From: Escherichia phage U1G
DNA length: 64,000 nucleotides
Sequence record: NC_070872.1
Reading direction: 5' to 3' (one strand)
The notes beneath the pieces were generated by a model. It made no database searches. It worked only from the letters and a program-made list of their open reading frames with translations, and was not told where the DNA came from. Position 1 is the stretch's first letter, and every line of letters begins with the position of its first letter. Of the stretch, positions 10,196 through 64,000 are shown in pieces. Position numbers and translations under genes: made by a program.

Positions 10196-11077
10196 TAACT
10201 AACGGGGCTTCATGAGAGTAATCTCATGTCGAAAGTTACCTAAACAGGGAACCTCTTCTAATCTGGTTGGCTCAGGTGTATACTTGAGTTTTAATCAATT
10301 GGAGACAATCCTGTGCTAAATAATGAAATTTGGAAAGATGTGCCCGACTTACCGTATGAAGTTTCCAACTTTGGCGTAGTACGCCGAAAAGAAGGAAAGT
10401 ATAAATACAAAAATAGGACACACATAAAACCGTATCTTAATAACAAAGGGTACTACTGCGTGAACCTGTACATGAATAGTAAAGTGTACAAATACCAAGT
10501 TCACCGTCTAGTAGGGTTAGCCTTTGTACCAAACCCTAATAACTATCCTATCGTTAATCATATAGATGGAAACCCTCTTAATAACCACGAGAGTAACCTG
10601 GAATGGTGTACCCAGTCTCACAACATGAAACATGCTTGGGATACTGGACTGCAATCAAACAGGCACGCTAATGCTAGTAATAAGAATCGTGGAGGCTCAT
10701 CCAAATACGTAGGTGTATCCTGGAGTGAGCAAAGACAAAGATGGTGTGCCCATATAAGGGTTAACAAGAAATCTATTGGTTTGGGGCGTTACAAAACAGA
10801 GGAAGAAGCTGCCAAAGCCTATGACTCCTATGTAACTAATAACAATCTTATACAGATTGGATACAGTACCAATTTCATTTAAACGCCAAACGACTATCGA
10901 AAACACGCAGCAATGCGGAAGTGAGTAGAGTAGGGTGCAAGCCAATGGCACTCGAAACGGTAACAGCCCTAGTAATAGGGCTTTGATATAGTCTCCTCTG
11001 CATGGTGACATGCAGCAGTCAGTATTCACTGAGTGTACTGACGGCATTAGTAGTTGCGAACTAATGTGAAGATAATG
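10196..11077 (+). mobile_element. group I intron (td-like, subgroup IA2) carrying an HNH endonuclease ORF
   Basis: 5' region CTAAACAGGGAACCTCT...GACAATCCTGTGCTAAAT and 3' core GAGTAGGGTGCAAG...CTCGAAACGG...GATATAGTCTCCTCTGCATGGTGACATGCAGC closely match the T4 td intron as recalled; ends ...GATAATG (terminal G); splice boundaries +/- a few nt. Confidence 0.7.
10313..10882 (+). CDS. intron-encoded HNH homing endonuclease (GTG start)
   Basis: HRLVGLAFVPNP...VNHIDGNPLNNHESNLEWCTQSHN HNH motif, C-terminal AP2-like YVGVSW...WCAHIRVNKKSIGLGRYKTEEEAAKAY; GGAG 8 nt upstream of GTG. Confidence 0.8.
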   Translation: MLNNEIWKDVPDLPYEVSNFGVVRRKEGKYKYKNRTHIKPYLNNKGYYCVNLYMNSKVYKYQVHRLVGLAFVPNPNNYPIVNHIDGNPLNNHESNLEWCTQSHNMKHAWDTGLQSNRHANASNKNRGGSSKYVGVSWSEQRQRWCAHIRVNKKSIGLGRYKTEEEAAKAYDSYVTNNNLIQIGYSTNFI

Positions 11078-48174: not shown

Positions 48175-50138
48175 TTACCGATTTTGTCTTGGTTGCATAT
48201 ACTCAGGCAAACCTTGTGCCTGACGTAGGTAACGTGCAGCACGTTCTTCATCTTCCTTGGCTCGTGCTCTGTCCACACTAGCCTGTGACCGAAAACCTCT
48301 TGGAGCCAGGTTATCTGGGTCTGCTTGTACTTGGGCTTGTGCAGCTTGTAGCATTGCAGCAGCTTTAGTAACAGCCTCCTGACGAGCAGGTAACAATGCA
48401 GTAAGACCTGTTTGTCCAGTGTTAATCTTGTTCTGGGTATTTGTCAGTGCAGCTACAGCAGCATCATAAGCAGTCTGTGCTGCCTGAATATTCTGCATAG
48501 CTTGAGCACGTCCGAGATTACGTACACTGCCTTCCAGTGGTTCGCCTCGTTGTACACCCTCAATTAACTGATCTACCAGACGGTCATTAAGACGCATACC
48601 ATTACCAGCTTCATTAGTAATGAATGGGTTAACTGCATCAATAGCACGGCTAATGTACCCTTCTGGTACACCGGTCTGTGCACGTTGCATAACAGCAGCA
48701 GCCATAGCTGGTGACATATTTCCACGTTGAGAAATATCAGTTAGTCGGTTAAGTACCCAGTTACGGTCAGCACCCTTAAAGTCACCATCCAGTAGACGAT
48801 TAGCAATCTCACCTACTGGAGTATTATCGGTAACAGTACCCAGGAAATCGGTATTAAGACTACCAGTGTTATCCTGCATAGAACGAGTACCAATCATACC
48901 TTGAGCCAAGGTAGATACTGCCCGATTTCCCTGATTATTCTGAATCAGAGCGAATGGGTCAGCACCTACTTCAGCTTGAGCAATAACAGGTTTAATCTGT
49001 TCCCAAGTCATATCCTTATAAGCACCTGGGGTAGAATTAGGTAAAGCAGCCCAGGTATCTTTAAGGTTACCATTCTTACGAGCCTCAAAAATAGCCTTAC
49101 CAATCTTCTCCTGGTTTTCAGGGGAAAGAGGCTGATTCTTCCAATCTGAGCCAAGAACTTTGGGAGCAAAGTCTTGCAGAGTAGCCTGGTTAATCTGGAA
49201 TGCACCAACAGGGGAAGCACCTTGATTTGTCTTCATGACATCCTGGTGTTTAATTACATCACCTATACTCATTTGAGTAATAGGGGTAGATGTACCAGCA
49301 AACTGATAAGTAACATCATAAGGAGAACCCTGACGAGTACCAGCAGTACCAGGAGCAGATGTAGCACCAACATTATTGCCGTAAACACCAGGGTATGCAC
49401 GAGCAAGCATTTCCTGTAAACGTGCCTGAGCAACTGGAGACAGATTCTTACTATATGCTTCTGCTAACAAACGAGCATCATTAGGGTTCTCAGCACCACG
49501 GGTAATTTGAGACATCACACCCATAGCTGCCTGACTATCAGCATCATTACGTTGAGCCACACCCAAATCAAAACGGTTCTGTGCTTGGTTAATAGCCTGA
49601 CCACCCTGCCCTTGTAGACGACTTAACATATCCAGTTGTTGGTCAGCAGGTAGTGCAGATAACGCTTCTCGCGTCTGACCCAATGCAGCATTAATACGAT
49701 TCTGGTCACCAGACTGATAAGCCTCGGACAATAAACGAATAGCTGGGGATGCATTATCTAATGCAGAGTCAGTATTCTGTAAGCGACCAAAACGATAAGC
49801 ATTATAGTCATTGGTTCCCTGCTGACCTTGTTGAGTCAGAAGAGTACCTGCTCGTTCATCCAGATTCTGGAGAGTACGCTGACTTACCAATGAAGGGTCA
49901 ACCCCTGAAACAATGCACCAGATGCCAAAGCATTACGATACTCAGTAGGGTCTTGATACTGCATAGCATTCATCATGACGGCATTGCCAGCCTCCTGCTT
50001 GGCAGCGTTCTGGAAATTACCCAGTGCATCACTTAAGCCGGAGGTGGCATTACCAATCATGTTGCCAAATGTGCGAATGCTGTCACCAACTCCGGAGAAG
50101 TTAGGTGCATAAACATTACGCCATGTAATTTGAGCCAT
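48175..50138 (-). CDS. internal virion protein (N4 gp51/52-like); two ORFs in this assembly
   Basis: 571-aa ORF has only a TTG start with no SD and 7-nt overlap with the 84-aa ORF; +1 nt in C4 (49902-49905) fuses them (~654 aa). Confidence 0.45.
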
Positions 50139-60479: not shown

Positions 60480-61094
60480 TACATGCCTCCAGTGGCACAT
60501 TGCCTATTCGGTTAGCTACCCAACCATACGTAAAGTCTGGCATGTTTAATGAGGTATAGTGGTTTAGTTGTTTAGCATCAAGCAGCTTAATCATTACCTG
60601 ACATGCTGCAACTTTGCCTCGTTTTTTCTGTAATGCTTTATAAGCATTAACAGTACTTGCACCGACTTTACCATCAACCTGTATTTTAGGGTAGTCTTTG
60701 CCATCACGGGACATTTCATTAAGGGATAACTGCAACCACTTAGCCGGACGGGTTACACCAGTATTAACACCAGCATCTACCAGCTTATGCGTTACAGCAG
60801 GAGATATATCAGCGAAGGCTACGAAGTTAGGCTTAAGTACGTAGTCATCAATGTATATCTCAGCAGCCATCTCCTTAGATAAACCTTTCATAGAACCACC
60901 CCAACCATATTCAGTAGCCAGAACCTCCTTATGAGACTTAGCTACCGATTGGGTAATACCATGATTAGTTTCCCCACCTGGGTCACGAGGATTGTTTACA
61001 TAACCCCTTCCATATAGAACACTGCCCCCAGGATAGCAGCGACAACCCCTCCCACTGCACCACCTTTTGCAGCAAGTTTCTGTTTAGCTTTCAT
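60460..61094 (-). CDS. GH108-type N-acetylmuramidase endolysin (N4 gp61-like) with signal-anchor-like N-terminus; frameshifted in this assembly
   Basis: YVNNPRDPGGETNHGITQ GH108 motif; SD-preceded ATG 61094 encodes MKAKQKLAAKGGAVGGVVAAILGAVFYMEG in another frame; +1 nt in C4 (61004-61007) fuses them. Confidence 0.6.
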
Positions 61095-61657: not shown

Positions 61658-61880
61658 AATATTACCGTAGTTGTAAAGTTAAGAACCCCTATGGGGTCGT
61701 ATCATAAGATGACTCTTAGATAATACTTAGTATGCTGAAATACATCCAGACAAAGAGACGAGCAAAACCTGTGCTTTGTAGAAAGGGCATCATTGGATAT
61801 ATTCAATACCCTATGGGGGAGAGTTACCCTAACCATTTTTACAGTTAGAGCAATGGAATCAGCAAACACTAATGGGTTTG

Positions 61881-61915: not shown

Positions 61916-63800
61916 TTACTGCTTCAAGCCATATACAATAATATCTGCACCTAATGTAGTCCACGCTTCGTCACCACGAGAACTTGCGCAGTTAACCGTA
62001 AACCCAGAAGGGGTTTGGTTAGTAACGCTAAATACAGGGGCAATACTCTGCAATGCACCAATACCCCCATTAAAGGTTACGGCTACACGATAATCCAGTA
62101 AGTTAATAGGTAGTGTTACTTCAGTACTACCAGCGGAACCAGTAGAGCGGGTGATAGATATACCCTTACGATAGATGAATTGCCCATTACGCAAACCAGA
62201 TAAAGTGGTGTTATCGGAGAGTGAGTCCACAATATCCCCAGCAACAATACCAATACCAGTTAAATCAGTATTAGTAATGATTCGTACACCACCTTCCTTG
62301 GTTCTTTCTAGTACCCTGGTTCCAGAAGCCAGACTGTATTTACCAGTTAATGTACTACGACAGGTAACGTTAGTAAGGTCAAAATAGTTATTAGAGCTGC
62401 TGGCATCATTAATAAGGTAAGAGAAGTTAACACATCGCACATTACTCATAGTAATTTGAGAATCTGAACCCTTACTTGAAACATCTACAAGATAGGGGTA
62501 TTGGCTGTTTGGTATGGAGGGTAATTACCCGCATGATAATTAGAAATACCTAATGCAACCCTACCATCTATGTAGATAGCAGAACCCGTTCCTGTATTTT
62601 CAGAACCACAATTATGCATACTAATGCTTCGGGTATCTGTAGTAGCGTTATCACCGGAACCACCGCCAAATACATAACTCCAGCGGGTAGTATGGTCGCA
62701 TGCACAATCAATAATTGAACTATAGCCACTAGCTAAGTAGTAACCACGATTAGCATAATCAACATAGCATTCTTTTATGTAGGTACTAGTACCGTCTTGG
62801 ATATAGAACCCGGTATCCGTACAGTTACGAGCAATACACCGGGATATACGTTGAATCCATGAACCTTTATCAAATATACCAAACTTATAACCTTCAAAGA
62901 GGCAATCTGATACGTAACTGTTCTCCGTTATACTAAAATAGATACCGTAGTCAGCATTGACTGTAGTTGTAAAGCGAATACCTGAAATACGAGCATACTT
63001 ACTCTGATTAGTATCTGTTAGTACAACAATAGCAGCATTTACGTTAACATCCACCCCGTAAGCATCTGGCTCAGTTATACCTGTCTTAGCTAAGGTAGTT
63101 AATTCAATAATTGCATTACCACCTTGTCCTTCAATTTCATAGTTATAAAAGCCTAAATTGCGATACAACAAGGGTTTAGTAATAATGTACTTCTTGGATG
63201 GAATCACCAACTTAGTTCGATTCAGTTGACAGTAATCCATTGCTGCTTGAATGGCTTCAGTATCATCAGTAACACCATCCCCCATAGCACCAAATACTTG
63301 CGGGGTAACATAGTGTATATACTTATTAAGTAGTTCCTCTTTCAGGTATGCGTCGGATATAGCAACCCAATTAGCATCCCCAACAGGGGATGATCCAGGA
63401 GCTACAGTAACGGGTAGTGCACCCTGGTAGGTGTATCCAGTACCATTGTAAACGAGTATGTCATTCTTAGTATTTACTATGGAACCGGTGGAGAACGTGC
63501 CAGGTAGGGTAGTATACTCCCCCTGCTTTTCCCAAGTTCCCCCAAATCAACAGTACCTGCTGAATGAACCAGGATTGCTTGTTCATTCAGGCTTACAGCA
63601 GTGGTTCCTACCGGGAGTACGGGCAAAGAGTAAGCACGCTGAGTAGTCTTATCATAAATGACCTTGTATTCCCCTAAGTCTACACCTACAGCAAAGTAAA
63701 CAACCTCATTCTGCTTAACTCCAAAGTGACGGGCTACTGCTTGTTTGTTGGTTAAGATTCCAGTGGAACCTTTACCACCTTGTGAGAACATTTCGTTCAT
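61916..63800 (-). CDS. tailspike/tail fibre with pectate-lyase-like beta-helix; three ORFs in this assembly
   Basis: AAGAGG SD before ATG 63800; GDGVTDDTEAIQAA beta-helix signature; +1 nt in C5 (63519-63543) and in G4 (62495-62498) gives one ~628-aa ORF. Confidence 0.55.
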
Positions 63801-64000
63801 ATAAACCTCTTTGTTTTTCTAAGTAAGCCCCTATTTGGAGGGGCTTGCAGTGGTAGTGACAACACTTTGAGTTAGTACGATAGTAACTAAAGACAAGATT
63901 AACCCTGCTACGATGTGTTTTCATCATTTTATCCCATGGCGATGACATGCACTTGCAGGACATAGTTTGTGTGAATCGTAATGAAGTCCATGATGTCACA

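Follow-up and report, generated by a model that had tools for sequence, protein, structure and literature searches.

The tailspike gene (RBP2) of Escherichia phage U1G lies on the minus strand at 61916−63800 of the window, which is the whole 64,000-nt stretch of DNA that was analysed; as given, the gene is 1885 nt long and is spread over three reading frames. The ORFs of this region are exact sequence matches to U1G proteins in an exact-sequence look-up; U1G is an N4-like Gamaleyavirus (record MZ394712) with a genome of 73,275 bp (PMC10754912). The ORF listing and a three-frame translation place three ORFs on the minus strand, at 63800−63477 (107 aa), 63285−62485 (266 aa), and 62449−61916 (177 aa). 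The corresponding open frames run from 63800 to 63477, from 63546 to 62485, and from 62524 to 61916, each step being a −1 frame change; frame 2 is open upstream to ~63546 and frame 3 to 62524, so that the frames overlap at both joints. A Shine-Dalgarno motif, AAGAGG, at 63806−63811 stands 5 nt upstream of the ATG at 63800−63798, which is the only real start codon of the locus; no comparable motif is found in front of the ATG of ORF2 (63285) or of ORF3 (62449), both of which are internal Met codons with homologous coding sequence extending upstream.

The frame 1 segment (63477−63800) is annotated as a 107-aa ‘tail spike protein’ (YP_010659837.1), of which residues 1−94 are the genuine N-terminal anchor and the final 13 residues are out-of-frame. 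The frame 2 segment (62485−63546) encodes residues ~86−438, comprising the end of the anchor with a Tail_spike_N-like domain followed by a right-handed parallel β-helix; the annotated 266-aa ‘tail fiber protein’ (YP_010659836.1) begins within this segment, at the internal Met at 63285. The frame 3 segment (61916−62524) supplies residues ~426−628, which form the last rungs of the β-helix and an all-β C-terminal domain, and is annotated from the internal Met at 62449 as a 177-aa hypothetical protein (YP_010659835.1).

Megablast against phage records returns one near-full-length match, from phage PGN829.1, with 98.6% identity over 2.1 kb. The corresponding protein, PGN829.1 gp51 (YP_010659724.1 / AXY82585.1), is encoded by a single 1887-nt CDS and is a 628-aa ‘tail spike protein’; it shares the genomic position and the neighbours of the U1G tailspike and is its orthologue, the gene order after the U1G tailspike (gp52 homologue, muramidase, Rz, portal) matching that of PGN829.1. 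Base-by-base alignment of the two genes contains two 1-nt gaps in the tailspike, both in homopolymers. At site 1 (63519−63523) the coding strand of U1G has G5 (C5 on the plus strand) whereas PGN829.1 has G6, and at site 2 (62495−62498) U1G has C4 (G4 on the plus strand) whereas PGN829.1 has C5; the true run lengths in U1G would accordingly be G6 and C5, as judged from the orthologue. With the base restored site 1 reads ...GKSRGEYTTLPGTF... and site 2 reads ...QTANTPYLVDVSSKG...; one base added per site yields 1887 nt and a 628-aa protein free of in-frame stops, whose joint-spanning stretches are SRGEYTTLPGTF, ANTPYLVDVSSK, and SRGEYTTLPGTFSTGSIVNTK. The repaired protein is identical to PGN829.1 gp51 at 622 of 628 positions (99%), with five of the six differences within the first 44 residues; with so few residues differing, the two-gap repair is not a product of chance. 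Beyond codon 50 the two genes differ by four substitutions (three synonymous) and the two 1-nt gaps, corresponding to 99.8% nucleotide identity, and a comparison of decay in the downstream frames has just these four substitutions to go on.

A preliminary description of this DNA had proposed three ORFs in successive frames, with a Shine-Dalgarno motif before the N-terminal one, that would be joined by two missing bases into one tailspike of ~628 aa. The ORF listing and translation bear out the frames and their coordinates, the motif is present, the alignment with gp51 has exactly two 1-nt gaps at the places claimed, and the two insertions give exactly 628 aa; the ‘extra C’ called for at each site is correct if site 1 is read on the plus strand and site 2 on the coding strand. 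That the receptor-binding protein is truncated as annotated also agrees with GenBank/RefSeq, which lists three separate proteins of 107, 266, and 177 aa, and a single tailspike split by two missing bases is corroborated by the intact 628-aa orthologue in PGN829.1 together with the other intact homologues.

Those homologues fall into two groups. The 90%-identity cluster of the 266-aa ORF holds seven proteins of 599−628 aa, namely PGN829.1 gp51 and six from independent assemblies; they are 85−94% identical to one another and all read through both joints, and the sequence N-T-P-Y-L-V-D-V-S-S at joint 2 is invariant in eight intact homologues. About 40 more distant homologues, mostly of 590−614 aa, carry the β-helix and the C-terminal domain in one chain and are 53−77% identical in the β-helix and 43−64% identical in the C-terminal part, with various N-terminal modules; the tail fiber protein of the Kuttervirus ECML-4 is a full-length homologue, with 54% identity over residues 1−627. 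Scans of IMG/VR, JGI metagenomes, and GTDB genomes with patterns allowing either run length detect no second DNA copy of the joints, and megablast of the joints against complete E. coli genomes gives no match; the DNA-level polarity at both tailspike sites is therefore taken from a single reference, PGN829.1, while at the protein level the joints are backed by six further assemblies. One member of the cluster, the 628-aa tailspike WP_161985584.1, comes from a 2.76-Mb contig recorded as Enterococcus faecium, a genome that is probably contaminated with coliphage DNA or misassembled.

The domain structure of the repaired protein follows the order given in the preliminary description (N-terminal adaptor, β-helix, C-terminal domain), as seen in Pfam matches, structure comparison, and models. 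Residues 1 to ~180 align straight across joint 1 with CBA120 TSP1 (4OJ5, E = 5e-63) and with G7C gp63.1 (4QNL; query 1−181 to 4QNL 1−188, E = 4.6e-55), and the matches of the anchor to CBA120 TSP1, TSP3, and TSP4 and to G7C gp63.1 range from E = 5e-63 to 2e-40; PHROG tail spike families match residues 1 to ~190, and Tail_spike_N gives a sub-threshold match at residues 92−150. Residues ~165−440 match three Pfam families above their cutoffs, PF12708 (33.5 bits, cutoff 27), PF13229 (29.1, cutoff 25.9), and PF05048 (28.4, cutoff 23.6), and the AlphaFold model of residues 86−438 (pLDDT 84) features regular short strands. The best Foldseek/PDB matches are CBA120 TSP3/TSP1 and the tailspikes of AS12, phiAB6, and Belisarius, Acinetobacter phage depolymerases being among them; the top matches have a probability of 1.00 and E-values down to 5e-10, at 13−19% sequence identity to the PDB matches, and no solved or characterised enzyme is close. 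The last ~190 residues are modeled as all-β with a pLDDT of 75.

These domain limits bear on the annotation as it stands, in which RefSeq records three CDSs; read literally, the adaptor, β-helix, and C-terminal proteins would be products of separate genes that assemble non-covalently, similar to the split systems of K1-5 or KP34, and split anchor-plus-RBD tailspikes do occur in other phages (PMC10408124). Joint 1, however, cuts within a single folded domain rather than between anchor and body, as it lies inside the N-terminal domain that has been solved as one fold in both 4OJ5 and 4QNL, and a natural anchor/body split at this point is ruled out for that reason. ORF2 and ORF3 would also have to be translated from internal Met codons that have no ribosome-binding site and have homologous coding sequence upstream, and all homologues are single chains; the probability of three separate genes is considered to be close to nil.

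The flanks of the gene contain further features. A perfect 11-bp hairpin with a 9-nt loop (GGTAGTGGGGT-9 nt-ACCCCACTACC) lies at 61880−61910 on the minus strand, 5 nt past the tailspike stop codon and without a T-tract; it probably marks the end of the transcript or stabilises it, was not called by a simple terminator scan, and lies in a region (61700−64000) where a scan for promoter and terminator consensus sequences gave counts not above those of shuffled controls. A similar 8-bp hairpin (AAGCCCCT...AGGGGCTT) is located ~25 nt upstream of the tailspike start, near 63825−63850. The first ~150 nt of the gene are only ~84% identical to those of PGN829.1; this part and ~190 nt upstream of the gene (63648−63994) are 91−95% identical to Phapecoctavirus-type myoviruses (ukendt, ZCKP1, TSP7_1, and UP17), which marks a putative recombination (mosaic) joint at the anchor module, near 63650.

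The sequencing platforms of the two phages differ. U1G was sequenced by Oxford Nanopore MinION (SQK-LSK109) with Guppy basecalling and Canu 1.8 assembly at 39x; neither short reads nor polishing are mentioned in the methods, and Illumina is named only for the bacterial host (PMC10754912). PGN829.1 was sequenced by Illumina HiSeq 2500 at 100x (PMC6256618) and is therefore considered a reliable reference. In order to compare the two beyond the tailspike, the CDSs of PGN829.1 were translated and searched against the 64-kb U1G window by tblastn, followed by nucleotide alignment. Approximately 15 isolated 1-nt indels are present in cleanly aligned DNA; every one is a shortfall in U1G and none is an expansion (15 contractions vs 0 expansions, two-sided binomial p = 6e-5). 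Nearly all lie in homopolymers, the run types being C4/C5, G4/G5, C5/C6, C6/C7, T6/T7, and A5/A6. When G/C runs of PGN829.1 with conserved flanks and without substitution are counted, 14 of the 20 runs of five are unchanged in U1G, six are shorter and none is longer, and both of the two runs of six are shorter, such that the contraction rate climbs with run length. Nine of the sites are covered by PGN829.1, Bp4, and VTCCBPA_322, and at eight of these U1G is one base short of all three relatives; the exception is 35567, where Bp4 has the run length of U1G, the Bp4 record itself being fragmented. The error rate amounts to ~0.25 per kb, and two shortfalls in one 1.9-kb gene are compatible with it (Poisson P(≥2) = 0.08).

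The shortfalls affect coding and non-coding DNA. On the minus strand, a virion structural protein similar to N4 gp51 (48178−50138) is split over two frames at a joint near 49902 (C4 vs C5), while the protein is 654 aa in PGN829.1 and intact in VTCCBPA_322. The endolysin (60463−61094, also on the minus strand) has C4 vs C5 at a joint near 61004; this N-acetylmuramidase, 211 aa in relatives, is cut off in U1G from its N-terminal hydrophobic segment, which is left in a 32-aa ORF (61094−60996), and the annotated endolysin ORF would begin at an internal Met (60891). A gp44/Sak4-like ATPase (shortfall at 32821), an HNH gene (12299), and two small genes (14374 and 35373) are each split over two frames; the SSB (33300) and the small gene gp83 (22222) have each lost one end. 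Intergenic shortfalls relative to PGN829.1, Bp4, and VTCCBPA_322 are found at 37, 15980, 30215, 35567, and 61326. U1G is reported to grow to stocks of 10^13 PFU/ml with a burst of 124 and normal plaques (PMC10754912); a phage in which the endolysin, the SSB, and a structural protein are all defective would not reach this titre and burst, and the shortfalls are therefore ascribed to the assembly rather than to the phage.

The same pattern weighs against reading both tailspike frameshifts as real, in which case the second tailspike would be pseudogenised, only a 107-aa anchor stub would be made, and infection would proceed via RBP1 or another receptor. A tailspike belongs to those genes whose loss can be borne on certain hosts, so that a genuine inactivation would be biologically conceivable; G7C-type phages, for instance, can do without functional gp63.1 on some of their hosts. 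The deposited sequence does read so, natural slippage also tends to strike homopolymers, and the U1G study makes a case for dependence on OmpC (PMC10754912). Real frameshifts would nevertheless require that the tailspike contractions are genuine while about 13 look-alikes are errors; the same class of contraction occurs at those sites, essential genes and intergenic DNA included, and a viable phage could not carry them. Two independent shifts would also have arisen in a gene with just four substitutions beyond residue 50 and no in-frame stop in its repaired 628-aa frame, and the Nanopore platform is known for exactly such errors. A pseudogenised tailspike is for these reasons thought to be very unlikely; that the short G/C tracts are real in some or all U1G genomes, where they would act as slippage switches of a phase-variable second tailspike, is given an even smaller probability.

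Recoding could in principle lead from the deposited sequence to a full-length tailspike, if the ribosome slipped by −1 on the G-run and then on the C-run, or if RNA polymerase stuttered; slippage by −1 on A-GGG-GG or AC-CCC-U would necessarily give back the wild-type protein exactly. Neither joint has an in-phase X XXY YYZ heptamer, the codons being AGG GGG AGT and ACC CCT ATC, and the runs are merely five G and four C without a long A/T run; transcriptional slippage needs longer runs than four to five to be efficient. Two shifts of low efficiency in succession would yield very little of the structural protein, no homologue needs a shift as each has a single open frame through both joints, and identical contractions occur in non-coding DNA. 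An Rfam scan of the whole window finds no family at threshold, with no sign of a frameshift element or of a group I intron in the interrupted ATPase gene. Recoding is thus regarded as having a practically negligible probability.

The ATPase in question, an AAA ATPase homologous to PGN829.1 gp14 (9882−11816, plus strand), carries an 879-nt insert at 10200−11078 that is absent from PGN829.1; both halves of the ATPase are in the same frame. The insert contains a 189-aa ORF (10313−10882) and matches no Rfam intron model, and the N-terminus of its product (IWKDV...YEVSNFGVVRR) is tentatively reminiscent of NUMOD4/HNH homing endonucleases.

The three-frame split is thus best explained, with high confidence, as a Nanopore homopolymer artefact of one 628-residue tailspike gene, on account of the window-wide pattern of shortfalls and the Nanopore-only sequencing. 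U1G resembles other cases of Nanopore homopolymer deletion in its ONT-only assembly, in runs that are always shortened, and in affected sites that are both coding and non-coding; nothing material sets it apart from them. Raw Canu output would be expected to contain more errors than ~0.25 per kb, which hints at a partly corrected consensus. Biologically the underlying gene is ordinary, a modular tailspike of a known kind that is 99% identical to a RefSeq entry.

Two other records show broken genes. In phage CR01 (OR061068.1), a sister of U1G that was sequenced in the same study by Nanopore alone, the tailspike is annotated as 481 aa and two small ORFs; relative to the 611-aa tailspike of the Kagunavirus UTEC10 its locus (109−1943 vs 109−1944 in UTEC10) has a 1-nt deletion, one G being missing (GG vs GGG) at locus position 1534. 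The β-helix of CR01 is ~52% identical to that of U1G, and U1007 served as the isolation host of both. The Bp4 record (NC_024142.2) has rIIA in three pieces, DNA polymerase in two, primase in two, the gp51-like structural protein in three, and gp53 in two; fragmented records seem to be common in Gamaleyavirus.

The U1G case is of value for data quality rather than for new biology. At least ten genes of the U1G RefSeq record are broken by homopolymer shortfalls, and the published receptor prediction for U1G used the 107-aa fragment as "the RBP" (PMC10754912); this fragment is part of the virion-anchoring module and not of the receptor-binding part. Learning sets for RBPs and host range, taxonomy, and phage-therapy dossiers should be built on a polished genome or on the 628-aa protein as repaired.

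In the real phage the gene most likely encodes a single protein of 628 aa and ~68 kDa, which corresponds to G7C gp63.1 in position and is homologous to it in the anchor. Gamaleyaviruses have two O-antigen-directed RBPs in a branched complex, and the RBP2 anchor is common to Kuttervirus tailspikes (PMC10408124). By homology, the N-terminal anchor of the U1G tailspike may dock it onto the gp66-like RBP1 in such a branched receptor-binding complex; RBP1 (the homologue of PGN829.1 gp49) is placed beyond the window end. As for position, the downstream neighbours, which are the side seen in the window, are collinear with PGN829.1 gp52−gp55, and the gene lies upstream of the lysis cassette, in keeping with an RBP2 gene that follows RBP1 and precedes a gp63/holin/endolysin/Rz/portal block. 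The fold of the body suggests that the β-helix would bind, and probably cleave, a surface polysaccharide such as O-antigen; the isolation host of PGN829.1 is an O8 strain. The C-terminal β domain might serve in trimerisation or binding, which is a guess.

Among known systems the closest comparison is G7C gp63.1 (4QNL, RBP2), with which the U1G tailspike shares a homologous N-terminal region of ~180 residues and the same place in an N4-like genome. The body of G7C gp63.1 is an SGNH esterase, which deacetylates O-antigen. No SGNH esterase domain is found in the U1G protein, as homology to 4QNL stops after the anchor; in contrast to G7C gp63.1, the body of the U1G tailspike is a pectate-lyase-like right-handed β-helix, and since the bodies differ, chemistry and receptor specificity are considered to differ as well. 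The presumed role is the same, that of a second O-antigen-directed tailspike (PMC10408124), and absence of the esterase module is expected because seven RBP2 subtypes are known in Gamaleyavirus (PMC10408124). The tailspikes TSP1 (4OJ5), TSP3 (5W6F/6NW9), and TSP4 (5W6H) of the Kuttervirus CBA120 share the anchor module of U1G, and their β-helix bodies are the top fold matches; CBA120 belongs to a different phage family, the myoviruses, and has four tailspikes. The β-helix of U1G is 13−16% identical to the solved CBA120 structures, and at such low identity specificity is not transferable from one to the other. The U1G protein is an adaptor-anchored tailspike with a receptor module other than the esterase of G7C.
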